A stretch of DNA of 44,158 nt, taken from the NCBI RefSeq assembly GCF_000332335.1, contig NZ_KB235948.1, forward strand, positions 2,804,513-2,848,670, in the 5' to 3' direction. The notes below the pieces were generated by a model that ran no database searches, was not told the origin of the DNA, and saw nothing but the letters and a program-made list of their open reading frames with translations. Of this stretch, positions 1-44,158 are shown piece by piece. How positions within the stretch are numbered: the stretch's first letter is position 1; every line of letters starts with the position of its first letter. A program made the translations under genes and the position numbers. This stretch comes from Oscillatoria sp. PCC 10802 (GTDB lineage Bacteria > Cyanobacteriota > Cyanobacteriia > Cyanobacteriales > Oscillatoriaceae).

Positions 1-969
1 TCGACATCGAGTTTACTAAGGGAATCGTGAGGTAAATCCGGTCTGGGTGAGGAATCTCCCGTCTCTGGGTCGTATATTTCCAGAGGTTCCCTGTAGCTCC
101 AGATGTCATACTGTCGCAGCTGGGTTGCTACCTGTTTTAGTTCTTTTAGTAACTCCACCGGCGTGCTGGTGGCGACGCCTCGTTCCTGCAATCCGGCTAG
201 CATTTCTTTAAGCTGAGCGGCTGAAGGATCGGGACATTTCCTCTCTCCCTTTTGCTGCTGGCGTCTGTCCCTACGGTAGACGGCGTGAAAGATTTCGGCG
301 AGGTGGCGCTGGCGCACAGGGAGAAGTTCCAGCTGTTTGGGTCTGGCTCTATTCAGGAGCGCCCAGTCGCTCAAATGTTTAAAGCCAAAGTCCGATAAAA
401 AATCTTTGATCTCTTGATTTTGTTGGGTTTGCAAGTAGGCCCAGTTGTCCAAGCTCATGCTGGATTTGGGGTCCTGCTTAAAGGTTCGCAAAATCTCAAC
501 GGCAAAATATTTATAAGCCGCTGGCTTCGCTTCACCACTGTCATCCAGAATAAGTTGAGTTTTACCCTCCCTGTCCAGGAGGATGAGACTTTGACCGTCG
601 TCATTCAGGACAAAGGGCAGCAAATCCCGGTAGCTGAAGGATTTTCCCCCATTGAAGAAACGGGCGATTTTTTGGCAGGCTTTGAGGATGAGGTAAGACA
701 CTCTGCACCGCAGGCAAAGTCCAGCTAGAGCGCGAGTTGTGGCGTCAGCAGAAGACTTCTTGGCGTGAAAATAAAAGAGCAGGGCGGCTTGAATCTCCTT
801 ATCCCGATGATGAGTGTTCTGGTTCGAGAGAGCCTGTTTTGCCTCTCTTTGCAGAAATTGTTTCTGAAAGAACTCCTGTGCCGCTGGGACTGCACAGTAT
901 TCGTATTCAACCCTTTCACTGGCCAGACGGATTCGGTAGATTTTCCCGTACCTGGATGGCGCTTCCATA
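1..969 (-). CDS. Hypothetical protein, N-terminal ~320 aa; ORF continues past the window start. Start could be ATG at 969 or GTG at 1067.
   Basis: My manual minus-strand translation gives an uninterrupted frame from ~1095 down to position 1 (..MEAPSRYGKIYRIRLASERVEYEYCAVPAAQEFF...LILLDREGKTQLILDDSGEAKPAAYKYF...LRQYDIWSYREPLEIYDPETGDSS..). It is not in the ORF track because it runs off the edge. I recognise no family. Confidence 0.5.
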
Positions 970-1782
970 ACCACTGCGATGACCTCACGTTGGCTGAGCT
1001 GCTCGTCTACTTGTATCAAAGAAATAGGTGCGCGTGTTTTGAGCTTATGCAGTTCCGGAGCCACCACCCCAGTGCAGCGGGCAGAAATCCAAGACCGGCC
1101 TGCCAGTGTGGCCCGCCGAAGCGAAACGAATCAGCAACAAACAGCTGGCACATTAGATTTAACGGTAATTGCTAACTGGGAAATTGTCAAGGGGGGTTGG
1201 TTCAGTATCCTGGTGAGTTGCTCAAACGCGCCGGTTTTAGCTCTGTTGCCCAGATAGGTCGTGGTTCAGGGAAGTGCTGGCCCCTTTATAGCGTCAGACC
1301 AAGTTCCCCAGAGATGACAGCCCGAATAGTAGTGGAGCCGTTCAAGGATGTGGCCGCCCCACCAGCGAGGAAGCCCTGTGGTCTAGCGGGCTGGGACATC
1401 TTGGACATGGGACGGCGCAAGTTCTGCCCCCCACACTTTGCCGGCGGGCACTGGGGCCAGCCGGCGAAAATCCTTGCGGTGTAAAGCTTTTGGGCTGCTT
1501 GTCACCCCAAAAGCCGGCGATAGTTCTCCCATTTGCATCTCCAAACTGCATAAGTTGATTTCAGTTCCCCCTATGAGGACGCAGGAGGAGGACAAACAAT
1601 GTTTACTATAATGGAGGCCAAAATGGCGTCGATAAGAATTACTGGCGGGGTGCGTGGACAGGAAAAAATGGGGGCAAAGCTGCCGGCTTTTTCCCCTCCC
1701 CCAGCGATGCTAAGCTGGGTTGCGTGCCGGCTGCCGGCAAAAATGATAAACTCAGAATATAGAGTTTAGGGGAATAGTTGCC

Positions 1783-2346
1783 ATGCAACCTGAGGGAATA
1801 TTTGGCGAATTGCCGGCGCTCGAAACTGACCGGCTGCTGCTGCGAAAAATGACCCTAGAGGATGCGGCGGATATGTTTGAATATGCTAGCGATACAGCTG
1901 TCGCCAAATTCACCACCTGGAGGGCGCACAAGTCTGTAGAAGATAGCAAGTTATTCCTGTTTGCGGTGATCGATGAGTACAGTAAACAGGAGCCGTCTTC
2001 TTGGGGAATAGAGGAAAAATTTGAGCGGAAGCTGATCGGCTCCTGTGGGTTTGTTAATTGGAGTCCTTCTGACTTTCGTGGGGAAATTGGCTACGCCCTC
2101 TCCAGAAAATACTGGGGGAAAGGATATATGACTGAGGCAGTCCGGGCGGCGATTGACTTTGGCTTTCGCACTTTGCTGCTGAATCGCATTGAAGCCAGAT
2201 GCGAGATTAAAAATCTTGCTTCCGCCCGCGTCATGGAAAAAGCCGGCATGAAATTTGAAGGGATCTTGCGACAGCACGCCTTTTATAAGGGTGCCTTTCG
2301 CGATTTGAAAATGTACTCTATTCTCAGGAAGGAATGGGTGGAGTGA
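1783..2346 (+). CDS. GNAT family N-acetyltransferase (RimJ/RimL-like)
   Basis: 187 aa: LLLRKMTLEDAADMFEYASD...IGSCGFVNW...GEIGYALSRKYWGKGYMTEAVRAAIDFGF...RIEARCEIKNLASARVMEKAGMKFEGILRQ is a typical RimL-type acetyltransferase fold signature. Confidence 0.85.
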   Translation: MQPEGIFGELPALETDRLLLRKMTLEDAADMFEYASDTAVAKFTTWRAHKSVEDSKLFLFAVIDEYSKQEPSSWGIEEKFERKLIGSCGFVNWSPSDFRGEIGYALSRKYWGKGYMTEAVRAAIDFGFRTLLLNRIEARCEIKNLASARVMEKAGMKFEGILRQHAFYKGAFRDLKMYSILRKEWVE

Positions 2347-2383
2347 GCCTCGATCGAATACCCAGTTGGCATAGATATAGCAG

Positions 2384-2555
2384 CAGTCATATAGCAGTAG
2401 CCACTTAGATTAGGACGTAGGACCGGCGTCTCGCCTGTCCCAGAGATATTGAGGGCACGGAGGGAACGCCTGCCCTGCGCCTTCCCTCCGATAGCGAAGC
2501 GGGACGCGACAGCGTCCTGCCCGTGTCCTAAACTGACTGCCTACTGCTATATTGG
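2384..2555. repeat. MITE-like element (family A/B: ends TATAGCAGCAGTCATAT / TATAGCAGTAGCCACTTAG...CTGCTATA) with internal GC-rich hairpin
   Basis: Terminal inverted repeats tatagcagtagccacttagattaggacg ... cgtgtcctaaactgactgcctactgctata. Related copies lie at 3300, 8945, 13397, 14915, 20614, 28753, 30614, 43745. Confidence 0.7.
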
Positions 2556-3215
2556 TTAGGATAGGGGGAGCAAGGGAGCGGGGGAGCGGGGGAGGCCCGA
2601 TAGAACTGCTGCATCAACTGATGGTTGCCAGCTCCCTCAAAGGTTAGTGGTGCTATCAAGTTCTCGCCTCTAAAAGCGGCTACTATACTTACTCTTGAGT
2701 TGCTGCGACCAGACTTAACGGCGTAAAATCTTTCACTTCTGTCACACCATCCATAGGGATAATCCTCTCGTTTATCTAGACCGAACTCATCAACAAAACC
2801 CAGACTGTCTCGTTATTGGCCCTCAAGAGGCGGTAGAAACGCCTTTCTTGAAACCTCATCCCTTTCTGCGTAACCCTAAGTTTTTTTTTCGGGTGAATCC
2901 AATTTTTTTTAAGGCGCGACTGAACGTGGAAGGACTGATTTCTCCAGGCCAGGCTTGCACCATTTCTGCTTGAGTTTTTTCTGCGTTGGCCAGGACAAAT
3001 TGACGAAAAGACTCCAAGTCTTTGATTTTATGTCCCCATCCCTGTTGATAGCCCGAACCCGGTTTCAAGTTCCCCGTCTCGGACTGACGCTTGCGCCACT
3101 GGTAAATTGTATTGCGGCTCACGTCAAAGACCCGAGCGGCTTCAGCTATACTCATCCCCCGTTCTACGGCACTGATGACTTTTTGGCGCAGATCGTAGCT
3201 ATAGGGTGCTGGCAT
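2556..3215 (-). pseudogene. IS630-family transposase remnant: N-terminal HTH ORF intact, DDE region frameshifted, 3' part replaced by a MITE
   Basis: ORF 2856..3215 = MPAPYSYDLRQKVISAVERGMSIAEAARVFDVSRNTIYQWRKR...KIGFTRKK is a classic IS630 N-terminus. Downstream minus frames give ..VDEFGLDKREDYPYGWCDRSERFYAVKSGRSNSRVSIVAAFRGENLIAPLTFEGAGN.. (DDE core) in shifted frames. The homopolymer A/T runs at 2880-2915 are where the frame is lost. The reading frame then runs straight into the MITE end at ~2556. Confidence 0.8.
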
Positions 3216-3461: not shown

Positions 3462-4109
3462 CTACATATTGGGCGGCAGAATCACCTTATCGATGACGTG
3501 GATAACGCCGTTGCTGGCTTCGATGTCCGCCGCAGTCACATTTGCCTGATTCACCATCACCTTGCCGGCATCAACTTTAACCATAACGGGGCTGCCTTCA
3601 ACCGTCGCCACGTCTCCAGACTGCAGGCTGCCAGACTTGACGGCACCGGGAACCACATGGTATGTCAAAATCTTGACCAGTTTGTCTCTGTTCTCCGGCT
3701 TTAACAGCTGTTCCACAGTGCCCTTTGGCAAAGCGGCAAACGCTTCATCCGTGGGCGCAAAAACAGTGAACGGGCCTTTCCCTGCCAGGGTGTCCACCAG
3801 ACCGGCAGCTTGCAGAGCCGCTGTCAGGGTCTTGAATGAGTCATTCTTACTGGCGATATCCACAATGCTAGGGCTGGTCGCGGCTGCAGCAGGACCGGCT
3901 ACCTCAACCTCGACGGCGGAGGTGGGAGACGCCGGCTGAGGGGCGCTATTACAGGACTTCGCCGAAACTGGCATGCTGAGCAAGAAACTGGCACCGGCAA
4001 CTGCCACAAGGCCAGCTAGCTTTCCGCCCCAGGTTTTAACGCTCTCTACCTTCATAGCTTTCTGGTCTTCCTTGGCCCGATTTTTACGAATTGTAAACTT
4101 ATGTTTCAT
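3462..4109 (-). CDS. Fasciclin (FAS1) domain protein, secreted
   Basis: [23 protein letters not shown]...LTYHVVPG...[17 protein letters not shown]1 motifs; N-terminal hydrophobic signal (alternative start at 4049). Confidence 0.85.
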
Positions 4110-5523: not shown

Positions 5524-6315
5524 ATGCTGGAACTGTATCAATCTGAACTGTCCCCGTACAGCGAGAAAGTGCGGCTGATGCTGGACTACAAAGGGCTGGC
5601 GTACCGGAAAATTGAAGTCACACCGGGAGTGGGACAGCTTGAAGTGTACCGGCTCTCCGGTCAGCCTCAGGTGCCGGTGCTCAAGGACGGTAATGTAGTT
5701 GTAGCCGATTCTACAGAAATTGCCAAATATCTCGACCGGCAGTATCCGGACCGCCCCCTGATTCCCGCCGGTGACAAACAGCGGGGGCTGTGCCTGCTGA
5801 TGGAAGAATGGGCGGACGAGTCGATTGGGGCGAAAAGTCAGAAGCTGCTGTTTTCCGCCCTCAGTTCTGACGGCAGCTTCCGCAGCGCCCTGCTGCCACC
5901 GGCAACCCCCGATTTCCTCAGAACCCTCGTGGAAGCAGTTCCTGCGGACTTGCTCAAGGCGCTCGGCACCGGCATCGGCGCGGGACCTGACACCGTGAGC
6001 GCCGCAATGGAATCCATCAAGCAAGACTTGGAAGCCCTCTGCTTGCTGCTGCAAGACAGCCCCTATTTGGTGGGCTCCCAGCCGACTCTAGCAGATTTTG
6101 CCGTAGCGGGGCTGTCGATATTCCTCAAGTTCCCAGAAGGACCCTATCTGGATATCCCAGAAAGGCTCAAAGGCAAAGGCGTGTCCGGAATTGCTGACAA
6201 TTACCTGTACGCACCGTTTTTCTCCTGGCGGGCTCGCCTGTACGACCAATATCGCCAACCGCTGACGCCCACCGGCACCACCGGCTCTGCGCCAACTTCG
6301 ATTCAAATAGAATAG
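5524..6315 (+). CDS. Glutathione S-transferase family protein
   Basis: N-terminal thioredoxin-like GST fold (LELYQSELSPYSEKVRLMLDYKGLAYRKIEV...PQVPVLKDGNVVVADSTEIAKYLD); RBS AAGGAGA. Confidence 0.8.
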   Translation: MLELYQSELSPYSEKVRLMLDYKGLAYRKIEVTPGVGQLEVYRLSGQPQVPVLKDGNVVVADSTEIAKYLDRQYPDRPLIPAGDKQRGLCLLMEEWADESIGAKSQKLLFSALSSDGSFRSALLPPATPDFLRTLVEAVPADLLKALGTGIGAGPDTVSAAMESIKQDLEALCLLLQDSPYLVGSQPTLADFAVAGLSIFLKFPEGPYLDIPERLKGKGVSGIADNYLYAPFFSWRARLYDQYRQPLTPTGTTGSAPTSIQIE

Positions 6316-6865
6316 TCGGATCGGGGTGGGTAACGCCAGGGAAGCAACTGATTTCTGCGGGGCGCAAGAGTGAGGCGCGCCGGCACGACTGCTCAGAAGA
6401 GCGCCAGTGCGGTGCTTTTCGCAAGCGCTGGCACCCCACTTCTATCCGGTGCCTTGGGTGATGCGAACGGGAGCATCAAGGGTTGTGCGAGCGTTGCCCA
6501 TATCAATGCGACAGTGATTTTAGCCGGGGGTAGGAGGAGAAGAGTTTTGGCCAGCACCCATCCCGGAAATGGGATTGAAACAACGGCACCCAACCCCAGC
6601 AACAGAGCCCACCGGCTGCAAAAGATGCCGGTGGGTTTTGAATTTTCAACCGCCTCCCCTGAAGCGCCCCACGCCCTGACAGAGGCAATTTCCCCTCGCA
6701 CCGGACGCTCCCGCCCGCCAGCGAGTTCGGGCGGCTCCGCCTCCCATTCTAGCACAAGCCGGTTCAACCCCAGCTCCTGTTTCCAGAGAGACAAAACCTT
6801 GCCCCTGCTAGCTATAAAATCAAAATTGATCGTAAGATCAGCCAGAAGCTTGAGAGATTAGAGCG

Positions 6866-8599
6866 ATGAATCTAGACAAACCACTGGGATCGGTTATTCA
6901 AGGTTCTCTCAGTGAGGGGGTGGAAGTCCGGCTGCATCCTGATGTCTCCGTTGAAGAGATGCGGGTGGGCAAGTTTTTGGTAGTGCAAGGCGTGCGAGCG
7001 CAGTTTTTTTGCCTGCTCACCGATGTCATCCTGGGAACCTCTAGCCCCCGCATTCTTGCCGATCCCCCCCTCGCCAGCGACACTTTGCTGCAGGAAATTC
7101 TGGCGGGAAGCAGCACCTACGGCACCCTGCAGCTCGCCCTAATGCTGATGTTCACCCCACCAAACCCGGAAAAAGCCCTCCGCAACTCCGCCCTTAAGTC
7201 GAAAGCGAGCAAAGCGGCGAAATCAAAGCTGGCGTCGTTTGAGGCGCAAACCAGCAGTGACATGGAATTGCTGCCGGTGAAAACCATTCCCAGCCATTTC
7301 TCGCAGGTGTATGAAGCCACCGAGGAAGACTTTCGCTGCGTTTTCGGTTGGGAAGACGATCCCTACCGGCGCAACTTCGCGATCGGCAAACCCATTGACA
7401 TGGACGTGCCGGTGTGCGTCGATCTCGACCGGCTCGTCGAGCGCAGCAACGGAATCTTCGGCAAATCCGGCACCGGCAAGTCTTTTCTCACCCGCCTGCT
7501 GCTGTCTGGAATTATCCGCAAGCAAGCTGCAGTGAACCTGATTTTTGACATGCACTCCGAGTATGGCTGGGAAGCTGTTTCGGAAGGCAAGCAGTACAGC
7601 ACGGTCAAGGGGTTGCGCCAGCTGTTTCCCGGTCAAGTTGAAATTTACACCCTCGATCCCATTTCTACAAGAAGTCGCGGCGTGCGCGACGCCCAAGAAC
7701 TGTTTCTCAGCTACGACCAAATTGAGGTCGAAGATATCGCCCTGGTGCAGCGGGAGTTCAACCTTTCGGACGTCGCTATGGAAAATGCTTTGATCCTGCG
7801 CAACGAGCTTGGCAAATCCTGGATTAGAGATTTGCTGGGCATGAGCAGTGAGGACATTCGGGAATTCTGCGAGACGAAGAAAGGAAACAAAGCTTCGATT
7901 GGGGCGCTCCAGCGCAAGCTCGTGCGCCTGGAGGAGATGAAATACATGCGCGACGACAAGGCAGCTAAAAATTATCTCACCCATATTTTAAACTCCCTGG
8001 ATGCCGGCAAGCATGTGGTGATTGAGTTTGGCTCCCACGCGGATATGCTATCATATATGATGGTGACGAATATGATATCCCGGCGGATTCACGCTAGCTA
8101 TGTGCGCAATTCCGAGAAGTTCTTGCGCACCAAAAATCCCAACGATCGCCCCCGCCAGCTGGTGATTACTATCGAAGAAGCCCACCGCTTTCTCGACCCC
8201 TCTGTCGTCGGCTCCACGATTTTTGGCACCATCGCCCGCGAGATGCGGAAATATTTTGTTACCCTTTTGATAGTTGACCAGCGCCCGTCGGGCATTGATA
8301 ATGAGATTATGTCTCAGATTGGCACCCGCATCACCGCTTTGCTCAACGATCAAAAAGACATTGACGCCATTTTCACCGGCGTTGCGGGAGCTGCCGGTTT
8401 GCGCTCTGTTTTGGCCAAGCTGGATTCCAAGCAACAAGCGCTGGTTCTCGGACACGCCGTACCGATGCCGGTGGTGGTGCAAACTCGCCCCTACGACGAA
8501 ACTTTTTACAGGGAAATTGGCGAGATGGATTGGGAAAATATGCCCACAGAACTTGTGATGGAAGAAAGTGAATCCGCTATGGCGGATCTGGGGTTCTAG
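6866..8599 (+). CDS. HerA-like / DUF87 P-loop ATPase (FtsK-HerA superfamily)
   Basis: 577 aa; N-terminal barrel-like region, Walker A FGKSGTGKSFLT, Walker B-like LVITIEEAHRFL, LLIVDQRPS motif. TATAAAAT -10-like box at 6813. Confidence 0.7.
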   Translation: MNLDKPLGSVIQGSLSEGVEVRLHPDVSVEEMRVGKFLVVQGVRAQFFCLLTDVILGTSSPRILADPPLASDTLLQEILAGSSTYGTLQLALMLMFTPPNPEKALRNSALKSKASKAAKSKLASFEAQTSSDMELLPVKTIPSHFSQVYEATEEDFRCVFGWEDDPYRRNFAIGKPIDMDVPVCVDLDRLVERSNGIFGKSGTGKSFLTRLLLSGIIRKQAAVNLIFDMHSEYGWEAVSEGKQYSTVKGLRQLFPGQVEIYTLDPISTRSRGVRDAQELFLSYDQIEVEDIALVQREFNLSDVAMENALILRNELGKSWIRDLLGMSSEDIREFCETKKGNKASIGALQRKLVRLEEMKYMRDDKAAKNYLTHILNSLDAGKHVVIEFGSHADMLSYMMVTNMISRRIHASYVRNSEKFLRTKNPNDRPRQLVITIEEAHRFLDPSVVGSTIFGTIAREMRKYFVTLLIVDQRPSGIDNEIMSQIGTRITALLNDQKDIDAIFTGVAGAAGLRSVLAKLDSKQQALVLGHAVPMPVVVQTRPYDETFYREIGEMDWENMPTELVMEESESAMADLGF

Positions 8600-9234: not shown

Positions 9235-10241
9235 ACAGGACCGGCGCGCCTCACGCCCAAGCTCAACGAGCGTCCTCAAATGTGTCTCACGAGAAAATGC
9301 GACGGGTAACAAACTTTCCAGTAACGCCAGCATAATAATAAAGTGCTGTGGAAATTGAGAGTGAGAGTCCACCGGCTCTGGTGCCGGTGCGGTGCTGCCC
9401 TCTCTGCTGCCGGCATCTGCCTTTGCCATATCTTTCCGCCAACAATACCATGCCGGCTGCAAATTGTCAATCCCCCGCCCGCTGACCGCAGCGCCGCTTG
9501 TGGTGGCGGGCGCAGCGTCACCCAAACGAAGAGCCGGTTGAGCAATCTCACCGTCTGGCTATCACCCTATTTTCCGCCCCCACAGGTTCGGCAATCCCGA
9601 GCCAAAGGGACTTCCCAGTTGCCTGTGGCTGCGGCATCATAGAAATCAGGAGGATTCTGCACTGCCAACCAGCAGCTATTAAGCCAGAATGGGACAGATG
9701 TTGCGTGTCAGGTCATAAGAAGCGCCCAGTGTCACCCACAACACACTCGCCGCCTGCGGAGTGGCGGGCTGCCTCTCACCGGGGCGGCCTTGCCGGTGCG
9801 GAGCGGCCTTCCGAGCGCCTAAATGTCAGTGTTCCCTCATCGGGGAGACCGCCGGCAAATCTGCCCTGCGGGGGATTTGCCCCTGATGCTTTTCCAATTA
9901 TATGTAGAAAAGCTTAATTTTACCGGCATTTTCGGGAAAGCTTAAGAATATAAGAGTTGAGGAGCAACCCAAGACTGTTTACAGGCGTCTAAATGTGGAA
10001 TACTGTAAAAAAAGGCAAACTCATACCGACTTCGAGTTTTAAGCACCTGTCACCCCGTACTGTCTGTTGCCGGTGTGGCGGCCAGGGGTGGCCGGTGTAG
10101 GGGCGGGCCACCGACGAAGACCGCCCTCCGACGCGAGCGACCTTCTAAGAGCTTCAACCGATTCAAACGCGCTCTCCTGCCCTGAGAGTGGGGCAGGTGA
10201 ATGAACCTTTAATTTTCATTTAGGGAGTTCACGACTCACTC

Positions 10242-11522: not shown

Positions 11523-12101
11523 ATGCTAAACTGGTTTGACAGGCTCCTAGCCGCGCTCCTCCCAGCTTTGGGGCTAGCCGCGAATGGCCTCTGCACCGCA
11601 CTCACGGCTTCCCACGCCCTTGCGGCTTTTGGCTCAGAGATTGCCCACCCCCCCCCAAAGCAAAGGGTTCACCCCACTGCCGGCGGCGGACCGGTTCTGG
11701 CCCCCGCAATGCCTGCTGAGGAACAGCCTTTAGCCGATGGGATTTACCACTACGGCGAGTCCGCTGAGCCCGAACAGATTGGCAAAGCCTATATGGTGTT
11801 TGAGGTGCGCCAGGGCTTAGCCATAGGAGCCTTTTACATGCCCAGCTCCTCCTTTGACTGTTTTTACGGCAGCGCTTGGCCGCAGCGACTCGACCTCACC
11901 ATTGTCAGCACCTACGAACAGACGGCCTACACCTACTCCGTCCCCCTCGACGAGTTTCAGCCCGTCCCCACCGTCAGCGAGAACGACGAGCGGATCTTGA
12001 GGGTGTGCACCGGCACCTATCAAGAGCGGGTGTGGGAGCGGCAAACTCCCCAGCGCCTAGCCCCAAGCCCCCTCAATACTCAATCCCCGGTTGCGCCCTG
12101 A
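11523..12101 (+). CDS. Hypothetical secreted protein (start uncertain; ORF track begins at a GTG at 11481)
   Basis: N-terminal signal-peptide-like MLNWFDRLLAALLPALGLAANGLC; no recognised domain; 3' end overlaps the cobO 3' end convergently. Confidence 0.4.
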   Translation: MLNWFDRLLAALLPALGLAANGLCTALTASHALAAFGSEIAHPPPKQRVHPTAGGGPVLAPAMPAEEQPLADGIYHYGESAEPEQIGKAYMVFEVRQGLAIGAFYMPSSSFDCFYGSAWPQRLDLTIVSTYEQTAYTYSVPLDEFQPVPTVSENDERILRVCTGTYQERVWERQTPQRLAPSPLNTQSPVAP

Positions 12102-12792
12102 CACCTTGCTCCCGAAACGGATGCTTAATCAGGGTCATTTCAGTCACCAAGTCCGCCCGCTCGATCAGGGCTGCCGGTGCCCCCCTGCCGGTGAGAATGG
12201 CGTGCGTGTCCGCCGGCTTTTCTGCCAAACCGGCCATCACTTCCTCAGCCTGCAAATACCCCAGCTTCATTGCTACATTAATTTCATCGAGCAGCACCAG
12301 CTTAAACTCCGGGTTGCGCAGAAATGTCAAACCCGTTTGCCAAGCCAGCTGGGCTCTCTCAATATCCCGCTCCCTGTCTTGGGTTTCCCAAGTGAACCCC
12401 TCTCCGAGCGCCCGGAACTCTATCTGCGAGCCCCACCGCTCCAGCACCGCCTTTTCCGCCGGCTCCCAGGCCCCTTTAATGAATTGCACAATAGCCACGC
12501 GGTAGCCGTGTCCCAGAGAGCGCAGCACCATCCCCAGCGCCGCTGTCGTTTTGCCCTTGCCATTGCCGGTGTGGACAATAATCAAGCCTTTTTCCAGATT
12601 TCGCTGCGCCAGTCGCTTCTCCTGCACCTGCTTGCGCCGCTCCATCTTCTGCCGGTACTGCTCTGGCGTCAGCCCTGCCGGTGCCAGGGGCGCTCCGGCA
12701 TCCGCCTCCAAATTTTCACCGCCGTCCATATCAGTCTTCGCGTTCATACTTACCTGCTGCGCTCCCTTGTCTAGCCCGCACCCCACTCCCAC
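12073..12792 (-). CDS. cobO: Cob(I)yrinic acid a,c-diamide adenosyltransferase (CobO/BtuR)
   Basis: VHTGNGKGKTTAALGMVLRSLGHGYRVAIVQFIKG...LLDEINVAMKLGYL...ILTGRGAP...HPF; ~50-aa N-terminal extension, so the start may be the internal Met at 12747. Confidence 0.85.
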   Translation of the reverse strand: MGVGCGLDKGAQQVSMNAKTDMDGGENLEADAGAPLAPAGLTPEQYRQKMERRKQVQEKRLAQRNLEKGLIIVHTGNGKGKTTAALGMVLRSLGHGYRVAIVQFIKGAWEPAEKAVLERWGSQIEFRALGEGFTWETQDRERDIERAQLAWQTGLTFLRNPEFKLVLLDEINVAMKLGYLQAEEVMAGLAEKPADTHAILTGRGAPAALIERADLVTEMTLIKHPFREQGVRAQPGIEY

Positions 12793-23822: not shown

Positions 23823-23826
23823 AGTG

Positions 23827-27069: not shown

Positions 27070-27249
27070 ATGCACGCAAAACAACAAATCCGCTGCCCCA
27101 ACTGCGGCAGTCATGCTGAGCGCGACTATCTGGCCAGCAGTGAGCTGACTCGGACTCAATGCCCCAGCTGCGATTACTTGATGGTTGCCTGCTCCCGCAC
27201 CGGCAGAGTCAGAGAGGCCTACGCTCCGGGGATCTACGCCCGCCGCTAA
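27070..27249 (+). CDS. Small zinc-ribbon protein (59 aa), not in ORF track
   Basis: MHAKQQIRCPNCGSHAERDYLASSELTRTQCPSCDYLMVACSRTGRVREAYAPGIYARR; two CxxC pairs; GAGAGG 8 nt upstream of ATG. Confidence 0.45.
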   Translation: MHAKQQIRCPNCGSHAERDYLASSELTRTQCPSCDYLMVACSRTGRVREAYAPGIYARR

Positions 27250-29008: not shown

Positions 29009-29217
29009 TTATCTTTTTCTGCTGCAAGATGTTTATAATTTTCTAACAAAGTTGAGCGTGGCGCAGACAAAGGGCAGCCTTTTCTCCCCCGCTGCCGGTG
29101 GCGGAAATCACTGAAGCGCCTGTCATTTAAGTGACAGCCCTACGCCCCAATTGGGAGAGAGAACCTCTCCGACTTCCGCACCCCAGTAACCCAGACCTGT
29201 AGCTGCCCCACAGCCAA

Positions 29218-30579
29218 TTAACTCGCCTTCAGCGCTGCGTGAGCTATCCGCACGATGGGAATCTCAATAACAAACTCTGCCCCCTGTCCGAGTTGCGAGC
29301 AACACTTCAGTTGCCCGCCGTGCTTTTGCACAATAATATCATAGCTGATAGACAGTCCCAAGCCGGTGCCTTCGCCCACCGGCTTAGTAGTGAAGAAGGG
29401 GTCAAATAGCTGTCCCATAACATCAATATCTATCCCGGGCCCATTATCTTTGATACTGATTCTCACCCAATCCCGGTTCAGAACTTGGGTGCGAATGGTA
29501 ATGGTACTGGGGCTGTTTTTAATCTCGTCTGAGGAGCGTGTCTTATCGCGCTCGTTCAGGGCGTCAATTGCATTGCTGAGGAGGTTCATAAAGACCTGAT
29601 TCAAAGAGCCGGCATAGCATTCGACTGCCGGCAAATCCCCGTATTCTTTGACGATTTGAATAGCGGGACTCTCAGGCTTTGCCTTGAGCCGATTGTGCAA
29701 AATCACTAGAGTGCTGTCGATGCCCTCATGAATGCTGACCGGCTTCATTTCAGCTTGGTCAACCCGGGAGAATGTGCGCAACGTCATCACAATCTGGCGG
29801 ATGCGCTCAGCTCCCACTTTCATAGAGCACAGCATTTTGGGGAGATCCTCTCTAAGAAAATCAAGCTCAGTCTCCTCAATTAAAGCTAGGATTTTAGGGT
29901 CAGGATTGACATAGCACTGCTGGTAGAGGTCGATTAAATCCAGGAGAGCCTGAGTGTAGTCCCCAACATAGCTGAGGTTGCCGTAGATGAAGTTGACGGG
30001 GTTGTTAATTTCGTGGGCGACACCGGCAACCAGCTGCCCTAAGCTCGACATTTTCTCGTTCTGAATCAGCTGAGCTTGAGTGCGCTGCAAATCTTGCAAA
30101 ACTCGTTGCAGCTGAATCGCTTTTTCGCGCTCTCGCGCTTCCGATTGCCGCAACTCCTCCTCTTGTTCTTGCCGCAAGCGCAGGTTTTCTTTCAGCTGTC
30201 GCACGCAGTTCAGGGTTTTGCTGATAGTAATTTCTAAATCCTGAAAATCTATGGGCTTGGTGAGAAAGTCAAATGCCCCGCAGTTCATTGCCTTTCTGAT
30301 ATTTGCCATGTCGCTATAGGCGGAAACTACCACTGTTTTAATCAGCGGCGCTATCTCATTCAGTTTAGCCAGCAAAGTCAAACCATCCATAACCGGCATA
30401 TTCAGGTCGGTCAGCACCATGTCGAGGTCGGGGTTATCTCGCACCTTTTCCAGCGCTTCTGCGCCATTGCGGGCAAAAACCAGCTCCAATTCGCCGGTGC
30501 GAATCTTTTTTCTATATTTTTGGCAAATCAGAAGTTCTAAATCCGGCTCGTCATCCACAAAGAGTATTTTAGCTGCCAC
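29218..30579 (-). CDS. Hybrid response regulator / histidine kinase (REC-coiled coil-HisKA-HATPase_c)
   Basis: N-terminal receiver (ILFVDDEPD...[12 protein letters not shown]...KP), H-box [13 protein letters not shown], HATPase KDNGPGID...[14 protein letters not shown]. Confidence 0.85.
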
Positions 30580-31348: not shown

Positions 31349-31352
31349 GATA

Positions 31353-35784: not shown

Positions 35785-35799
35785 AGGCATTTTAAGGCA

Positions 35800-35880: not shown

Positions 35881-36651
35881 CTAGGCTACTTGTGGGCGCA
35901 ACAGCGAAACTAATTGCTCAATCCCCTTTTGAATCCGCCGCGTCACAGTCATCGGGCTGACGCCAATCCTCTCCGCTACTTCCTTGCGGGGGATATCATT
36001 CAAAAACACAAACTCAATCACTTCTCGGGTTTTTTCTTCCAGCTGGCTCAACGCCCCTTGCAGTTGCTGGCGCTCCTCTTCAGCATTTTGCAGCGCTTGG
36101 TAGTGCGCGTCGAGCAGCGTATCTCCCAGCGTCACCGGCATGTCCACTTGCTGGCCAATTGTGGCATCCAGACTCAGGGGGGTAGAATTTTGCGTGGCCA
36201 ACTGGCTTTCCCGCCACTCTTCGAGAGAAACCCCCAGCTTTCTAGCAATTTCAGCCTCGCTAGGAGAGTAACCGAGAGACGCTGTTAATCGCTCGCGAAC
36301 TTTCTGGCCTTCTTTTTGCAGCTCTTGCCAGCGGCGGGGAATTCTCACCGGATTGCCCTTGTCGCGCAAGAAGTGCAGCATCTCGCCGCGAATGTAAGGA
36401 ACGGCAAACGAGCTAAAGGCGCATCCCTGGCTGGGGTCGAAGCGCTCAATGGCCCGAATTAAGCCGAGATAGCCGATTTGTTCCAGGTCTTCGTAGGGTT
36501 CAGCGCACTGGTGGCTGACTCTGTGAGCAATCTTGCGCACCAAGCCTGCATTCAAGCGCACCAGCTGATTGCGAATTTCGACAGAGCGGTTGTGGTGATA
36601 GGAAACCAGCAGCTCCATACCACGGGAGCGGACAGAGGATTGAATTGCCAT
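35881..36651 (-). CDS. RNA polymerase sigma factor, group 3 (SigF/SigB-like)
   Basis: 256 aa; region 2 DLEQIGYLGLIRAIERFDPSQGCAFSSFAVPYIRGEMLHFLRD, region 4 HTH EVAERIGVSPMTVTRRIQKGIEQL. Confidence 0.85.
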   Translation of the reverse strand: MAIQSSVRSRGMELLVSYHHNRSVEIRNQLVRLNAGLVRKIAHRVSHQCAEPYEDLEQIGYLGLIRAIERFDPSQGCAFSSFAVPYIRGEMLHFLRDKGNPVRIPRRWQELQKEGQKVRERLTASLGYSPSEAEIARKLGVSLEEWRESQLATQNSTPLSLDATIGQQVDMPVTLGDTLLDAHYQALQNAEEERQQLQGALSQLEEKTREVIEFVFLNDIPRKEVAERIGVSPMTVTRRIQKGIEQLVSLLRPQVA

Positions 36652-37413
36652 CCTTAAAAAGCCCTCAACGGTAGAAACCCCTTTGTTTCAGGGAGTTGGG
36701 ATCGTTAACTCATCAGACCAGACGCACCCGACGCTGAAAAGCAGCTGTACTTATTCTCTGTGGCTCCCCCAAGCCGCAACTATGGTTGTTCTACGGAATT
36801 GACTGGGGCGATCCTGCCGCGTCTCAGCACAAACACGTAGGTTTCTACCCCAAACGCCGACTCGCTTTTAGCTTTTCTTAAGGATTAAAGGCTGGCACCG
36901 GCGGGCCGCCTAGGCAGGGCCGGCGAAACATAGGTGAAAATAAGCAGTCCCCAGCAATTTCTTGCCCGGACAATCCGAGGAAAAAGGTAGGGTGCGCTAC
37001 CGAAATGTCTGGGCCGTCTCTGCCGGTGGCCGGTGAGGGTGGCCACGGGGGTTGCCCCTACAGCTTCTGGCTCGGGTTGCGAGACTGCCGGCGAAAAATT
37101 CCGTTTGATTATTTCGTTTTATAACAAACCGCCAAGACGCCAAGAACGCCAAGGAGGAAGAAGAAAGAGGGAGAGGGAGAGAAAATTTAATAGGGGCAAT
37201 TCACCGGAATAGATAGTTGGAGAGGCTGGCGGGGGGAGAAGCGTGCCGGCTGTAACTTAAGAGGATTGACCGGCACCCCACAGGACTCAATCAGCCGGTC
37301 GCACCTGGGTCAGGCACCCTGTTGCTGCGGGCGGTCTCGCTGCGGGCCGCCGAAATATAAGTGAAAATAGGTATAGCCAGCAATCTTTTGCCTTGCTAAT
37401 CGGATGAAAGAAT

Positions 37414-38142
37414 ATGAGCAATACGAGTAATTTCCGCCAAGCCATGCGGGAGGCCAAATACCAGCCGCTGGTAGGCCCAAATGTGATTGCCAACGCCCTG
37501 CCCTACCTGGGGGGCGGACTTGTCCTCACCGCTGCCGGTACTTACGGCGGGCTGAGGGTTTTAAGTGCCAACCCGGGGCTGTTCATGCCCACTTTCTTGG
37601 TGGCTGTGATTCTGGAGTTGGTTCTGTTCTTTGTGGCCCAGAGGGTGGCCGCACAGGGCAACAACAGCACCGCTCTGCCCCTGCTGGCCACTTACAGCCT
37701 GCTGACCGGCTACACCCTCACCGGCTTGGTGTTCCTGGCCTTGCGGACAGCGGGAGTTGGCCTGCCTGGAGTGGGGTTTGCCGCCTTGGGGTGCGGCGTC
37801 ACCTTTATCGCCGCCCGACAAATTGGCTCTAACCTGTCGGAAGAAGACGGCATGGCCGTCACCCGAACGGTACAGCTCGGCATCATTGCCCTGCTGGTCG
37901 TCCTCGTTGGCCAATTATTGCTGTCCCTGTTTGGGGTTTACACGCCCACCTGGCTGGAAGTTGCCATCTCCGGCGTCGGGGTGTTTCTGTTTGCCGGTGC
38001 GGCGGTGGTTGACTTCTTTATCCTGCCTCGCACCTATCGCAACGAGCAGTACCTGAGCGCCGCCCTGTCGATGTATCTGACGTACATCAACTTGTTTATT
38101 TTTATCCTGCGCTTGCTGATCGCCCTCAATAGCCGGGATTAA
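37414..38142 (+). CDS. Bax inhibitor-1/YccA family membrane protein
   Basis: 242 aa, seven predicted TM helices; MSNTSNFRQAMREAKYQPLVG... and C-terminal YLTYINLFIFILRLL typical of BI-1/UPF0005. Confidence 0.8.
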   Translation: MSNTSNFRQAMREAKYQPLVGPNVIANALPYLGGGLVLTAAGTYGGLRVLSANPGLFMPTFLVAVILELVLFFVAQRVAAQGNNSTALPLLATYSLLTGYTLTGLVFLALRTAGVGLPGVGFAALGCGVTFIAARQIGSNLSEEDGMAVTRTVQLGIIALLVVLVGQLLLSLFGVYTPTWLEVAISGVGVFLFAGAAVVDFFILPRTYRNEQYLSAALSMYLTYINLFIFILRLLIALNSRD

Positions 38143-38698: not shown

Positions 38699-39821
38699 AT
38701 GGAAGTCCTAGACATCAAACGCGAAATCGAAACGCTGTCCTACCGCCTGGGGAAAACCCAGGACTATCTTTGACATACCGGCACTGACAGCCCAGATTCA
38801 AGACCTGGAGCAGCTGGCGGCTCAGCCGGCGTTTTGGGACGACCAAGCCGCCGCCCAGCAGACGCTGCAACAACTGGACGGACTGAAATCCCACTTGCAG
38901 CAATACGACCGCTGGCGAACCAGTCTGGAAGACGCTACGGCAGTTTTGGAACTGCTGGAGCTAGAGCCCGATGAGGCGCTGCTGCTGGAGGCGGAAACGA
39001 ATATAACCCAGCTCAACCGCGAACTCGACCAGTGGGAGCTGCAGCAGCTGCTCTCCGGACCCTACGACGAAAAAGGTGCGGTGCTGAGCATAAATGCCGG
39101 TGCCGGCGGCACAGACGCTCAAGACTGGGCCGAGATGCTGGTGCGGATGTACACCCGCTGGGGGGAGCGTCAGGGGTACAAGGTGCACCTGACCGAAATT
39201 TCAGAGGGGGATGAAGCGGGGATTAAGTCCGCCACCCTGGAAATTGCCGGTCGCTATGCCTACGGCTATCTGAAGGCGGAGAAAGGAACGCACCGGCTGG
39301 TGCGGATTTCCCCGTTTAATGCCAACGGCAAGCGGCAAACCAGTTTTGCCGGCGTGGAAGTGATGCCGGCGATCGACACCTCGGTGCAGCTGGAGATTCC
39401 AGAGAAGGATCTAGAAATTACGACCTCCCGCGCCGGCGGTAAGGGCGGGCAGAATGTCAACAAGGTGGAAACCGCTGTGCGGATTGTTCACATCCCCACC
39501 GGCCTTGCGGTGCGCTGCACCGAAGAGCGCAGCCAGCTGCAAAATAAAGAAAAAGCCCTGGCCATCCTGAAAGCGAAGTTGCTGATCGTCGCTGTTGAGC
39601 AGCGGGCCAAGGAAATTGCCCAGATCCGGGGGGATATGGTGGAAGCCGCGTGGGGCAACCAGATCCGCAACTATGTGTTCCATCCTTACCAGTTGGTTAA
39701 GGATCTGCGCACCGGCGTGGAAACCACCGCCATCACCGACGTGATGAACGGCGAGCTCGACCCGTTTATCGAAGCTTATCTGCGCCAGGAAAACCAGATT
39801 GCCGAAAGCCAGCCGGCATAA
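38699..39821 (+). CDS. prfB: Peptide chain release factor 2, with programmed +1 ribosomal frameshift at CTT TGA C (38768-38774)
   Basis: Frame 0: [24 protein letters not shown] then TGA at 38771. The +1 frame continues [24 protein letters not shown]... into the 308-aa ORF with SPF and GGQ motifs ([18 protein letters not shown]). AGGA SD-like element 3 nt upstream of CTT. Confidence 0.9.
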
Positions 39822-40486: not shown

Positions 40487-41467
40487 GTGACTCATCCCCG
40501 TGTTATCTGCCTCGGTGAAATTTTGTTTGATTATCTGGCTGACCAGCCCGGGCACTCCCCAAAGCAGGTTGAGTCTTGGACACCCCATGCGGGAGGCGCA
40601 CCGGCCAATGTGGCCTGCGCTCTAGCCAAGTTGGGGACGCCGGCGGGATTTATCGGCTGTGTTGGCCAAGATGAGCCCGGAGACTCCCTGGTGCGGGTGC
40701 TGTCTGGTGCCGGTGTGGGTGTCACCGGCATCCAGCGCCACAAAACAGCACCCACAAGGGCAGTTTACGTCCTGCGCTCAGAAACCGGCGAGCGGGAGTT
40801 TGCCGGTTTTGGTGAGCGGGACACCACAGAATTTGCCGATACCTATCTCCAGAGTGACCAATTGCCAGAGGAACTGTTTGAAAATGCTGAATTTCTGGTT
40901 TTGGGCAGCTTGGAAATGGCTTATCCCGACAGCCGCAAGGCGATTGAGCGAGCGATCGATCTCGCCGAGCAGCACTACGTCAAAATTGTGCTGGATGTTA
41001 ATTGGCGACCGGCGTTTTGGCCCGATCCCGCCGACGCCCCCCAGCTGATTCTGGATCTGCTCCCTCAGGTCGATTTCCTCAAGCTTTCCGAAGAGGAAGC
41101 TGAATGGCTCTTAGGCGCGACAGATGCCAGTTCCATATCCTACAAGCTCGACTCAGTGGAGGGTGTGCTGATCACCGCCGGCGAGCACGGTTGCTCCTAC
41201 TGTCTGGGAGACACTTGCTCGCAGGTGCCGGCTTTTCCTGTGAAGGTGGCAGACACCACCGGCGCGGGGGATGCCTTTCTTGCCGGTTTTGTCCACCAGA
41301 TCTGCCAGCACGGGATTAGCATTCTCGAAGACCCGCAGATGGCGAAAAAAGTGGTAACATATGCCTGTGCGGTGGGGTCGCTGACGGCGACTAAACCGGG
41401 TGCGATCGCCGGCGCACCTGATGCCGGTGAGGTGGAAGCTTTCTTGCACAGCAGCGCTGTTCACTAA
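40487..41467 (+). CDS. PfkB-family carbohydrate kinase (fructokinase-like)
   Basis: VICLGEILFD, GGAPANVACALAKLG, DTTGAGDAFLAGF anion-hole motif; GTG start. Confidence 0.8.
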   Translation: MTHPRVICLGEILFDYLADQPGHSPKQVESWTPHAGGAPANVACALAKLGTPAGFIGCVGQDEPGDSLVRVLSGAGVGVTGIQRHKTAPTRAVYVLRSETGEREFAGFGERDTTEFADTYLQSDQLPEELFENAEFLVLGSLEMAYPDSRKAIERAIDLAEQHYVKIVLDVNWRPAFWPDPADAPQLILDLLPQVDFLKLSEEEAEWLLGATDASSISYKLDSVEGVLITAGEHGCSYCLGDTCSQVPAFPVKVADTTGAGDAFLAGFVHQICQHGISILEDPQMAKKVVTYACAVGSLTATKPGAIAGAPDAGEVEAFLHSSAVH

Positions 41468-42808: not shown

Positions 42809-42862
42809 AGACGATTAAACCGGGTGCCATTGCCGGTGCGCAGCCGTGTCGGTAAGGTAACA

Positions 42863-43175: not shown

Positions 43176-43682
43176 TTAGCTGGAATGTTCGCTGCCACCG
43201 GCCCGCAGCTCAAGCAGAATCATCCGCACGATTTCCTCTGGCGGCTGCGAGGCGTCGGCAACAATCGCTTCCTCTGGCTCTTCGAGAGTGTCGAACTGGC
43301 TTTGCAGCAAGTCCGCTTTCATGTAGTGGTTCTGGCGCGATCGCAGCCGGTGTGAGATCAGCTCGAAAGATCCTTTGAGGTAAACTAGCCTCATGCGCTG
43401 CAAGTCGCGCAACAGTGACTGGCGATAGGACGCTTTGAGCGCTGAGCACGCCAGCACCGCGTTTGTGTCCCCCTCCAGCCATCCGTCGATGGCGCGCTGC
43501 ATCCGATCGAGCCACGGTTTGCGGTCCGCATCGTCGAGGGGGATGCCCCGGCTCATCTTCTCGATGTTTGCCGGTGGGTGAAAATCGTCGGCATCGCTGA
43601 AGTTCCAGTTCAGTGATGCCGCCAGCAGCCGGCCAATGGTCGATTTGCCGGAACCAGAGACTCCCATGACTATAACTATCAT
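43176..43682 (-). CDS. Gluconokinase (shikimate-kinase-like P-loop kinase)
   Basis: MIVIVMGVSGSGKSTIGRLLAASLNWNFSDADDFHPPANIEKMSRGIPLDDADRKPWL...AVLACSALK. Confidence 0.85.
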   Translation of the reverse strand: MIVIVMGVSGSGKSTIGRLLAASLNWNFSDADDFHPPANIEKMSRGIPLDDADRKPWLDRMQRAIDGWLEGDTNAVLACSALKASYRQSLLRDLQRMRLVYLKGSFELISHRLRSRQNHYMKADLLQSQFDTLEEPEEAIVADASQPPEEIVRMILLELRAGGSEHSS

Positions 43683-43744
43683 CGCAGCGCCACCCGATGG
43701 AAAATGGGGGCGACCGGGCGGGTCGCCCCTACAATTTTAGCGTT

Positions 43745-43851
43745 TATAGCAATATGCACTTAGGTTAGGACAGTAAGACAGGCGAGACGCCTGTCCTACG
43801 CCTTTTGTCCCTACGCCATTGATGTCTTAACCAGTATGACTAATGCTATAG
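43745..43851. repeat. MITE copy
   Basis: tatagcaatatgcacttaggttaggacagtaagacaggcgagacgcctgtcctac...ccagtatgactaatgctata. Confidence 0.65.
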
Positions 43852-43903
43852 CGGTCGGGACAGAGGCCCGGTTTATTGCCCCCCGCTAGTGGCTTCGGAG
43901 GTC

Positions 43904-44158
43904 ATGGGAATGCCGCAAACAATTGTCCTCCCCTGCATGTTACCCGTGCCGGTGGCGCTGCCGGTTCCCGCCGTCGTGTTGCCTGTGCCGGTGCGGCTGC
44001 CGGTTCCTGCTGTTGTGTTACCTGTGCCGGTGCGGCTGCCGGTTCCCGCTGTCGTGTTACCTGTGCCGGTGCGGCTGCCGGTTCCCGCTGTCGTGTTACC
44101 TGTGCCGGTGGGATTGGCTGGTCCCTCCGCCTGGGTGTCAGTGCCGGTGCGGCTGTCG
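43904..44158 (+). CDS. Proline/valine-rich repeat protein, N-terminal fragment (runs off window end); strand and frame tentative
   Basis: GGAGGT then ATG. MGMPQTIVLPCMLPVPVALPVPAVVL then (PVPVRLPVPAVVL)x3, encoded by a 39-bp tandem repeat. The minus frame GNTTAGTGSRTGT is also open. Confidence 0.35.
   Translation, partial: MGMPQTIVLPCMLPVPVALPVPAVVLPVPVRLPVPAVVLPVPVRLPVPAVVLPVPVRLPVPAVVLPVPVGLAGPSAWVSVPVRLS
43982..44158. repeat. 39-bp tandem repeat x ~4.5 (cctgtgccggtgcggctgccggttcccgctgtcgtgtta)
   Basis: Period 39 by position (43982, 44021, 44060, 44099). Each unit carries two TGCCGGTG octamers. Confidence 0.8.

Follow-up and report, generated by a model that had tools for sequence, protein, structure and literature searches.

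A known counterpart of the sequence word treated here is HIP1 (highly iterated palindrome 1; GCGATCGC), whose function has been open for thirty years and for which the genomes where it is replaced provide the best natural controls. A survey of 97 cyanobacterial genomes (Elhai 2015, Life 5:921, PMC4390886) finds that the top 8-mer of Oscillatoria PCC 10802 is CACCGGCA, present at 647/Mb with an observed/expected (O/E) ratio of 32, and that HIP1 reaches only 103/Mb (O/E of 5) in this genome. The word is annotated in the survey as 'Alternative rCCGGy (DmtD)', DmtD being a 5-methylcytosine (m5C) methyltransferase whose target in Anabaena, according to the same paper, is the first C of rCCGGy. The present analysis concerns this octamer (TGCCGGTG/CACCGGCA) in a segment of the Oscillatoria sp. 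PCC 10802 chromosome (current NCBI taxonomy name of the strain, Kamptonema formosum PCC 10802) that is 44,158 nucleotides (nt) in length with a G+C content of 53.6%, hereafter the window.

The published record of PCC 10802 (PMC4390886) further includes: (i) the extension of the core to cACCGGCa/tGCCGGTg in 33% of cases (Tables 2 and 3 of that paper hold the octamer and extension figures, respectively), (ii) genome-wide O/E values of 4.93 for GCCGGC, 5.98 for GCCGGT and ACCGGC, and 0.59 for ACCGGT, and (iii) the assignment, in the supplement, of OSC10802-RS19505 as the putative rCCGGy methyltransferase, an ortholog of DmtD. Exceptional HIPs are said there to 'occur sporadically, not in clades'. 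A full-text literature search for CACCGGCA returned Elhai 2015 only; later HIP1 surveys are confined to palindromic octamers or do not include this strain. The excess of the word and its reading were, thus, already published in 2015, as the word, genome, counts per Mb, O/E values, 33% extension, hexamer pattern and low HIP1 all match. The additions made here are modest and comprise the sharing of the word within a clade, its selective retention at synonymous positions, and the lability of GCCGGC.

Abundance and form of the octamer

Exact counting finds 56 sites of TGCCGGTG/CACCGGCA in the window (35 on the + strand and 21 on the - strand), 105 sites of the heptamer GCCGGTG/CACCGGC and 6 sites of HIP1 (0.14/kb). 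The octamer count expected from base composition is 1.76, and 100 dinucleotide-preserving shuffles give 1.67+-1.39 with a largest value of 7. Markov models of order 2, 3 and 4 give 2.7, 8.1 and 18.7, respectively, expectations that are conservative because the models were trained on the window itself. The resulting O/E is 32 (31.8) by composition, 6.9 at order 3 and 3.0 at order 4. For the heptamer, 7.6 sites are expected by composition and 28.6 by the order-3 model. At about 1.2 sites/kb, the octamer is the commonest 8-mer of the window, and ACCGGC is the commonest 6-mer; an O/E in the tens together with first rank among words is a trait of HIP-type sequences. An earlier note, made by eye on the same DNA, had claimed an over-represented, HIP1-like signature whose asymmetric word has RCCGGY at its centre, and had pointed to the link of HIP-type words with cognate DNA methyltransferases and with repair or recombination bias; this reading is supported and agrees with Elhai 2015 (PMC4390886). 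Its estimate of 45-50 octamers was a slight under-count and its ~80 heptamers fell short of the exact number, its ~6 HIP1 sites were exact, its expectations of ~10 heptamers and ~2 octamers lie close to the 7.6 and 1.7 given by composition, and the O/E of 1-2 under order-3 or order-4 models that it had set as refuting is exceeded.

The enrichment is graded, with no sharp boundary at eight nucleotides. The core hexamer GCCGGT/ACCGGC is found at 172 sites (O/E of 6.1; 6.08 before rounding), and when these are oriented as GCCGGT, T occupies position -1 in 50% and G occupies position +1 in 61%, such that 56/172 (33%) are extended to the full octamer. The palindrome GCCGGC has 78 sites (O/E of 4.8; 4.78 before rounding), ACCGGT has only 7 sites (O/E of 0.57), and the remaining NCCGGN words are near or under expectation; CCGG as a whole has 405 sites. 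The palindrome TGCCGGCA, with 9 sites, is secondary to the octamer, as is GCCGGC. Among the transition variants of the octamer, TGTCGGTG (1 copy) and TGCCGATG (0 copies) are the rarest. The octamer differs from its own reverse complement and, thus, departs from the palindromy of HIP-type words, the palindromic part being the degenerate core rCCGGy only. Set against the published genome-wide values, the window has 634 octamers/Mb per orientation (vs. 647/Mb), an O/E of 31.8 (vs. 32), an extension of 33% (vs. 33%), and O/E values for GCCGGC, GCCGGT and ACCGGT of 4.78, 6.08 and 0.57 (vs. 4.93, 5.98 and 0.59). The window, thus, closely mirrors what has been published for the genome as a whole.

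The octamer occurs in coding DNA at 1.35/kb and in non-coding DNA at 1.10/kb, where open reading frames (ORFs) were called heuristically by codon-usage scores trained on Pfam-supported ORFs. Relative to the genes, 19 sites are sense and 21 are antisense. Four of the six combinations of frame and orientation are common, while those that would read Cys-Arg and His-Arg are nearly empty. When synonymous codons are shuffled within each gene, a procedure that keeps every protein and the codon usage of each gene, the 40 coding octamers compare to 6.0+-2.2 (largest 14 in 1000 shuffles; z=15) and the 131 coding GCCGGT sites to 37.7. The 16 non-coding octamers compare to 0.4-2.2 expected under Markov orders 1-3. 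Codon usage is, thus, insufficient to account for a word found in several frames and outside of genes, and codon-pair bias in one frame, which the earlier note had named as a potential sole cause, is not the explanation. Past positions -1 and +1 of the 172 oriented sites, base frequencies are near background, in contrast to a repeat element whose likeness reaches into the flanks. The strand split of 35:21 (p=0.08) becomes 29:21 (p=0.32) when a 39-nt tandem repeat is set aside (density then 1.14/kb), a distribution that lacks the strong skew of Chi or of the KOPS (FtsK orienting polar sequences). With random flanks and a 29:21 split, the octamer is neither Chi-/KOPS-like nor part of a longer repeat. 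The repeat families of the window that resemble miniature inverted-repeat transposable elements (MITEs) or are palindromic do not carry the octamer, and an Rfam scan of the window returned no matches.

Sharing and retention of the word among relatives

Syntenic DNA of relatives was recovered via cluster look-ups and a genome scan. Three lineages align closely: (i) lineage B, an Oscillatoria sp. Prado101-type contig of 152 kb (loci L084, L088 and L092; 90.1% nt identity), (ii) lineage P, an O. princeps RMCB-10-type genome of 8.63 Mb (L094 and L096; 91.6% nt identity), and (iii) lineage C, another, uncultured Oscillatoria represented by a metagenome-assembled genome (MAG) (L003; 86.7% nt identity). 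In all three, TGCCGGTG is the top 8-mer at 1.1-1.8/kb with an O/E of 31-47, ACCGGT is scarce and HIP1 is present at 0.24/kb or less. Counting PCC 10802 itself, at least four lineages, thus, have the signature (the other three being the O. princeps RMCB-10 type, the Prado101 type and the Oscillatoria MAG), and the alternative word is a clade character rather than an oddity of a single strain.

The next relative by RlmN among the matches listed (L004; 71% nt identity over blastn-aligned segments) lacks the CCGG signature and instead carries 47 HIP1 sites in 21 kb (2.2/kb), by comparison to which HIP1 is depressed in the window (6 sites; 0.14/kb), as is typical of an alternative HIP. Of eight L004 HIP1 positions that align to window positions 17913-33999, four are occupied in the window by remnants that are 1-3 nt off (e.g., GCGATTGC at 28014 and ACGATCGC at 18329), and the other four bear little resemblance to GCGATCGC. 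These remnants suggest the decay of an ancestral HIP1. In the PCC 10802 lineage, HIP1 appears to have decayed to near-background levels, with the octamer occupying the HIP1 niche at about 1.2/kb.

A 21-kb locus (46% G+C) of a more distant genome, a MAG labelled Microcoleus vaginatus WJT46-NPBG5 (L005), 72% identical to the window over 5.3 kb of blastn-alignable sequence, has as its top words GCCGGC (50 sites; O/E of 15.5) and TGCCGGCA (11 sites; O/E of 47). ACCGGT is missing from this locus, HIP1 is low, and CACCGGCA is present at two of four aligned octamer sites of the window. L005 may carry a palindromic flavour (TGCCGGCA) of the same CCGG-based signature. In Argonema antarcticum (L041) and in L067, GCCGGC is absent from 21 kb each and GCCGGT is present at 16 and 19 sites, respectively; this lack of sites could be due to the avoidance of a restriction enzyme that targets GCCGGC.

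Between the window and its close relatives, the octamer is retained well above the expectation from codon-position-specific background divergence, and the palindromic hexamer is not:

TGCCGGTG vs. lineage B: 34/44 kept, 18.4 expected, p=2e-6
TGCCGGTG vs. lineage P: 33/39 kept, 19.1 expected, p=6e-6
TGCCGGTG vs. lineage C: 9/11 kept, 2.9 expected, p=2e-4
GCCGGC vs. lineage B: 37/61 kept, 31.9 expected, p=0.2
GCCGGC vs. lineage P: 40/58 kept, 32.7 expected, p=0.063
GCCGGC vs. lineage C: 2/19 kept, 7.3 expected, p=0.016

Retention of the octamer is 77-85% in B and P, where 42-49% is expected. At non-coding and third-codon positions, octamers differ at 6.1% of positions in B (background of 15.1%) and at 3.0% in C (background of 19.4%). 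Hexamer forms that lack the octamer flanks are also conserved vs. P and C, and other NCCGGN sites are conserved like background. The fraction of sites shared by the window, B and P is 56% for the octamer, 58% for GCCGGT, 34% for GCCGGC and 32% for other CCGG sites. A dipeptide control, restricted to Ala-Gly, Thr-Gly, Pro-Val and Pro-Ala pairs that are conserved as amino acids, finds both codons identical in 54/60 (B) and 59/61 (P) of the motif-encoded dipeptides vs. 61/100 (B) and 55/91 (P) of the same dipeptides otherwise encoded (p=5e-5 and 8e-8, respectively).

Gains and losses of the two words also differ. Octamers private to the window and to the relative are roughly balanced (10 vs. 15 for B and 6 vs. 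7 for P). By contrast, GCCGGC sites are private to the window in excess (24 vs. 9 for B, 18 vs. 8 for P and 17 vs. 2 for C), and those private to PCC 10802 derive from varied substitutions including transversions (e.g., GCAGGC, GGCGGC and ACCGGC as the source). All four differences between the window and B at the first C of GCCGGT are C/T, although the substitution spectrum within GCCGGT has too few events for a methylation footprint to be discerned. The preferential retention at synonymous and non-coding positions points to an asymmetric (T)GCCGGT(G) component that is old and actively kept, while the palindromic GCCGGC component is, by the alignments, young and labile. Conservation of the octamer past matched controls is a trait of HIP-type words, and like conservation of HIP1 was used to argue for selection by Xu et al. 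2018 (PMC5861425). A periodic spacing over long distances (10-90 kb) is a further trait taken from that study.

The octamer copies of the window are as follows, each line giving the coordinates and strand of one TGCCGGTG copy, its setting, and its state (same or differs) in lineages B, P and C where given:

3992..3999, - strand, in ORF 3462-4109(-); B, P same
5672..5679, + strand, in ORF 5524-6315(+); B, P same
5897..5904, - strand, in ORF 5524-6315(+); B, P same
5967..5974, - strand, in ORF 5524-6315(+); B, P same
6270..6277, - strand, in ORF 5524-6315(+); B differs (TATCGGTG), P same
6626..6633, + strand, in the 6370-6861 ORF region; P same
7272..7279, + strand, in herA-like ORF 6866-8599(+); B, P same
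7407..7414, + strand, in ORF 6866-8599(+); B, P same
7471..7478, - strand, in ORF 6866-8599(+); B, P same
8466..8473, + strand, in ORF 6866-8599(+); B, P same
9382..9389, + strand, outside ORF calls; B differs, P same
9791..9798, + strand, outside ORF calls; B, P differ
10068..10075, + strand, outside ORF calls; B, P same
12008..12015, - strand, in ORF 11481-12101(+); B same, P differs
12172..12179, + strand, in ORF 12073-12792(-), direct pair with 12186; B, P same
12186..12193, + strand, in ORF 12073-12792(-); B, P same
12564..12571, + strand, in ORF 12073-12792(-); B, P same
12676..12683, + strand, in ORF 12073-12792(-); B, P same
13752..13759, + strand, in moeA 13637-14884(+); B, P same
14028..14035, - strand, in moeA; B, P same
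14160..14167, + strand, in moeA; B, P same
14197..14204, - strand, in moeA; B, P same
14823..14830, + strand, in moeA; B, P same
14871..14878, + strand, in moeA; B same, P differs
15935..15942, + strand, in kinase ORF 15247-16848(-); B, P, C same
16393..16400, - strand, in kinase ORF 15247-16848(-); B, P, C same
17054..17061, - strand, non-coding; B, P, C same
17065..17072, - strand, non-coding; B differs, P, C same
17412..17419, + strand, non-coding; B, P, C same
19826..19833, - strand, inverted pair with 19841 (7-nt spacer); B differs, C same
19841..19848, + strand, inverted pair with 19826; B differs, C same
19871..19878, - strand, outside ORF calls; B same
20103..20110, + strand, outside ORF calls; B same
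24942..24949, - strand, upstream of sbtA; B, C differ
25100..25107, + strand, outside ORF calls
25741..25748, - strand, in ORF 25142-25813(-)
27198..27205, - strand, non-coding; B, C same, present too in distant L005
27821..27828, - strand, in rlmN 27540-28652(-); B, C same
29093..29100, + strand, non-coding; P differs
30021..30028, - strand, in ORF 29218-30579(-); B, P same, C differs (TGCCGATG), present in L005
33879..33886, - strand, in histidine kinase ORF 31353-34277(-); B, P same
36133..36140, - strand, in sigF 35881-36651(-); B, P same
37021..37028, + strand, non-coding; B, P differ
37992..37999, + strand, in ORF 37414-38142(+); B differs (TGTCGGTG), P same
39095..39102, + strand, in prfB 38895-39821(+); B, P same
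40708..40715, + strand, in pfkB-family ORF 40487-41467(+), inverted pair with 40723 (7-nt spacer); B differs, P differs (AGCCGGTG)
40723..40730, - strand, in pfkB-family ORF 40487-41467(+); B, P same
41422..41429, + strand, in pfkB-family ORF 40487-41467(+); B, P same
42831..42838, + strand, non-coding
43569..43576, + strand, in gluconokinase ORF 43176-43682(-)
43938..44155, + strand, 39-nt coding tandem repeat with six TGCCGGTG copies (43947, 43986, 44025, 44064, 44103 and 44142)

Read on the - strand, the 39-nt repeat encodes a Thr/Gly-rich 13-residue repeat (GTGSRTGTGNTTA) within ORF 43873-44157(-), which runs off the end of the window. Few copies of the word lie in the low-G+C stretches (46-49%) at 20001-24000 and 30001-32000, which cover cemA, carbonic anhydrase, sbtB and part of a histidine kinase gene; the interval from 20110 to 24942 is free of the octamer.

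Explanations for the signature

The explanation considered likely is that the octamer is the published alternative HIP on the DmtD site rCCGGy, marked by methylation and held by a directional force. The octamer is a form of GCCGGT/ACCGGC flanked by T and G and, thus, includes two of the four versions of rCCGGy, the predicted target of the orphan m5C methyltransferase DmtD. Methylation by DmtD would mark the sites, and the directional force would keep the marked sites in place. This force could be: (i) selection for a HIP1-like, methylation-dependent function, such as strand discrimination in mismatch repair or the stimulation of DNA uptake/recombination, or (ii) site-specific biased repair. 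The methylation link and the repair/recombination role are taken from Elhai 2015 (PMC4390886), where the role is likewise hypothesized.

Several points weigh against this explanation. No methyltransferase gene is found in the window, the DmtD link depends on the homology assignment of one paper (OSC10802-RS19505), and a methylome of PCC 10802 was not found in the literature searched. When C5-methyltransferase motifs were searched as regular expressions over 97 loci, two unrelated enzymes were detected (L029 and L043), and the Oscillatoria loci returned no match. In most of the cyanobacteria that have a DmtD ortholog, rCCGGy is under-represented (Elhai 2015, PMC4390886); thus, DmtD by itself is not enough to cause the excess. 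The flanking T and G fall outside of the DmtD site and have no explanation. The conservation tests are based on about 27-31 kb of aligned DNA, and the p-values for B and P are not independent as these lineages share history. GCC-GGC dicodons are intermediate in the dipeptide control (69-79% identical), so preferred-codon effects may contribute. Finally, conservation cannot separate selection for a function from site-specific repair bias.

A narrower form of this explanation is put forward only tentatively. Here, the preserved unit would be the asymmetric (T)GCCGGT(G), rather than the DmtD site as such or GCCGGC, and the O. princeps/PCC 10802 clade would have given up HIP1 in favour of a signal that is non-palindromic, probably hemi-'G-m5C', and held by selection at synonymous sites. 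The function of such a unit could be methylation-dependent DNA uptake/recombination or strand discrimination in repair. If this is correct, and if L005 carries the palindromic version, the clade would form a natural experiment on the function of HIP words.

A neutral origin, while credible, is rather doubtful. In the mismatch-repair ratchet of Elhai 2015 (PMC4390886), a hypothetical nicking enzyme reads G-m5C as the mark of the parental strand, such that mutations to G in front of the methylated C of rCCGGy are preferentially fixed and GCCGGY words accumulate as a by-product with no function of their own. The model predicts that GCCGGT, ACCGGC and GCCGGC are enriched and ACCGGT is not, with a second round that drives the words to GCCGGC. 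Exactly the three G-containing versions are enriched in the window (O/E of 6.1 for GCCGGT/ACCGGC and 4.8 for GCCGGC, vs. 0.57 for ACCGGT), and the private GCCGGC excess of PCC 10802, with its many kinds of substitution, is as a general fixation bias would give. However, GCCGGC, which would carry G-m5C on both strands and is the protected end state of the model, shows no conservation above background, and the one-sided GCCGGT forms and full octamer are conserved instead; the lability of GCCGGC and the retention of the one-sided forms are the opposite of what the ratchet predicts for a 'fixed' end state and are difficult to accommodate in the model. The preferences for T at -1 (50%) and G at +1 (61%) lie outside of the model, long-patch repair would be expected to shield some 1 kb of surrounding DNA rather than the site specifically, and the nicking enzyme is hypothetical. 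Elhai (PMC4390886) notes that PCC 10802 is short of the GCCGGC end state and that its flank bias is unexplained, and he lists the pattern as a dissonance. Clade inheritance and retention are both relevant to the question of whether HIP-type words serve as functional signals or arise as by-products of repair.

It is unlikely that the octamer serves to mark DNA for uptake or recombination by analogy to the DNA uptake sequence (DUS), the uptake signal sequence (USS) or the role now proposed for HIP1, selected as an 8-mer with methylation as part of the signal. A density of about 1.2/kb, the lack of strand bias (29:21, p=0.32) and of transcription bias (19:21), the presence in coding and non-coding DNA, and conservation across relatives that is strongest for the full octamer would all suit such a signal. 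HIP1 boosts natural transformation in a way that depends on methylation, with methylated HIP1 increasing transformation up to 100-fold in PCC 7002 (Kamoku & Nielsen 2024), and a proposal of 2026 gives HIP1 a role like that of the DUS. By contrast, only two inverted pairs of the octamer are present, one of which is inside a gene and not at a terminator, and the 8-mer may not be the unit since hexamers that lack the flanks are conserved vs. P and C.

More improbable still is an overshoot of very-short-patch repair, in which a Vsr-like endonuclease partnered with the m5C methyltransferase would correct T:G mismatches at deaminated rCCGGy and also convert T:A-derived mismatches of near-cognates, driving them towards the methylated word. 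Overshoot of this type has been proposed for Dcm/Vsr of E. coli. The C/T differences at the first C of GCCGGT (4/4 between the window and B) fit such a process, as do the rarity of the transition variants TGTCGGTG and TGCCGATG (1 and 0 copies) and the mildly low outer-C deamination products of GCCGGC (O/E of 0.48-0.79 in the four signature lineages vs. 1.26 in L004). The depletion of T-variants is, however, weak (O/E of 1.0-1.3 for GTCGGT and 0.83-0.99 for GCCGAT) and far below the 6-8-fold excess of the word, many of the lineage-specific gains are transversions, and the vsr gene is absent from the window. The process also predicts enrichment of ACCGGT, which is instead depleted. Thus, with deamination products not clearly depleted (O/E of 0.5-1.3), ACCGGT unenriched and gains by transversion, this explanation is little supported.

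Biases in amino acids or codon pairs, a family of dispersed repeats, and an architectural motif with Chi- or KOPS-like polarity, although six sites stem from one coding tandem repeat and the frames are uneven (Ala-Gly, Thr-Gly and Pro-Val readings prevail), can be dismissed as extremely improbable given the z of 15 against the synonymous-codon shuffle, the 16 non-coding sites where no more than 2.2 are expected, the random flanks past +-1, the absence of strand skew, and the MITE-like and palindromic families that are without the word. Codon bias, a single frame, a repeat element and strand polarity are, thus, ruled out by the shuffle, flank and strand tests.

Other features of the window and comparison with known systems

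The window has cyanobacterial genes, among them cemA, sbtA-sbtB, group-2 sigma factors and a pentapeptide-repeat kinase, and its proteins further include MoeA, a Bax-inhibitor, a PfkB-family kinase, a gluconokinase, GNAT, SigF, a histidine kinase and a HerA-like protein. At least ten proteins of the window (these eight, SbtA and a group-2 sigma factor) are 100% identical to NCBI entries of PCC 10802. The heptanucleotide CTTTGAC, the classic programmed +1 frameshift site of prfB, is found at 38768-38774, upstream of the release factor 2 (RF2) ORF 38895-39821, and the match of this ORF to the PCRF domain starts only at profile position 39. A near-perfect 61-nt tandem duplication (34655-34776; 2 copies with 98% matches) reaches 24 nt into the 5' end of the lgt ORF (34753-35784).

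A MITE-like intergenic family has at least 8 copies in the window (about 2390-2551, 8947-9106, 13397-13504, 14966-15233, 20614-20796, 28754-28931, 30614-30776 and 43745-43850), each of about 100-270 nt with a variable interior and terminal inverted repeats of about 35 nt that start with TATAGCAGTAGGCACTTAGGTTAGGACA. The 10-mer TATAGCAGTA occurs 25 times at 1 mismatch or less vs. 0.85 expected. The palindromic 13-mer GAAACCSGGTTTC has 11 copies vs. 0.05 expected, all reported on the + strand (8754, 14562, 17284/17302, 17710/17728, 40223, 41480/41500, 42953 and 43158) and often paired 18 nt apart in intergenic DNA; the related GGGTTTCT has 18 copies in the lineage-B locus L092. Tandem repeats of the heptanucleotides CCCTAAC, AAATCCC and ATTTTAG (4384-4445, 31316-31347 and 35799-35843) are of the short tandemly repeated repetitive (STRR) type that is common in filamentous cyanobacteria.

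Among the known systems, HIP1 resembles the octamer in several respects. Both are conserved between relatives beyond controls (for HIP1, Xu 2018, PMC5861425), and both tolerate 1-nt variants chiefly at the outer positions, as seen in the window and by Elhai 2015 (PMC4390886). Each is a GC-rich octamer that occurs roughly once per kb in coding and non-coding DNA and holds the site (for the octamer, the predicted site) of an orphan m5C methyltransferase. By contrast, HIP1 is a perfect palindrome that serves DmtA (GATC) and DmtC (CGATCG), whereas the octamer is non-palindromic and lies on the DmtD site. Unlike the palindromic HIP1, the octamer is predicted to present G-m5C on one strand only.

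The DUS of Neisseria and the USS of Pasteurellaceae are non-palindromic short words that occur at about 1/kb in both orientations, inside and outside of genes, and are shared by related species. The octamer, known here from sequence, is like these words in density, mixed orientation and sharing among relatives; however, it is shorter and more degenerate, overlaps a predicted methyltransferase site and is not massed as inverted pairs at terminators. Chi and KOPS/AIMS (architecture imparting sequences) are likewise over-represented non-palindromic 8-mers but are strongly skewed to one replichore strand, in contrast to the 29:21 split of the octamer. The CCWGG biases of Dcm/Vsr in E. coli likewise involve an m5C site with skewed abundance of the site and its neighbours; by contrast, the T-variants of the octamer are not clearly depleted, and its excess is much greater and hinges on the flanking purine.

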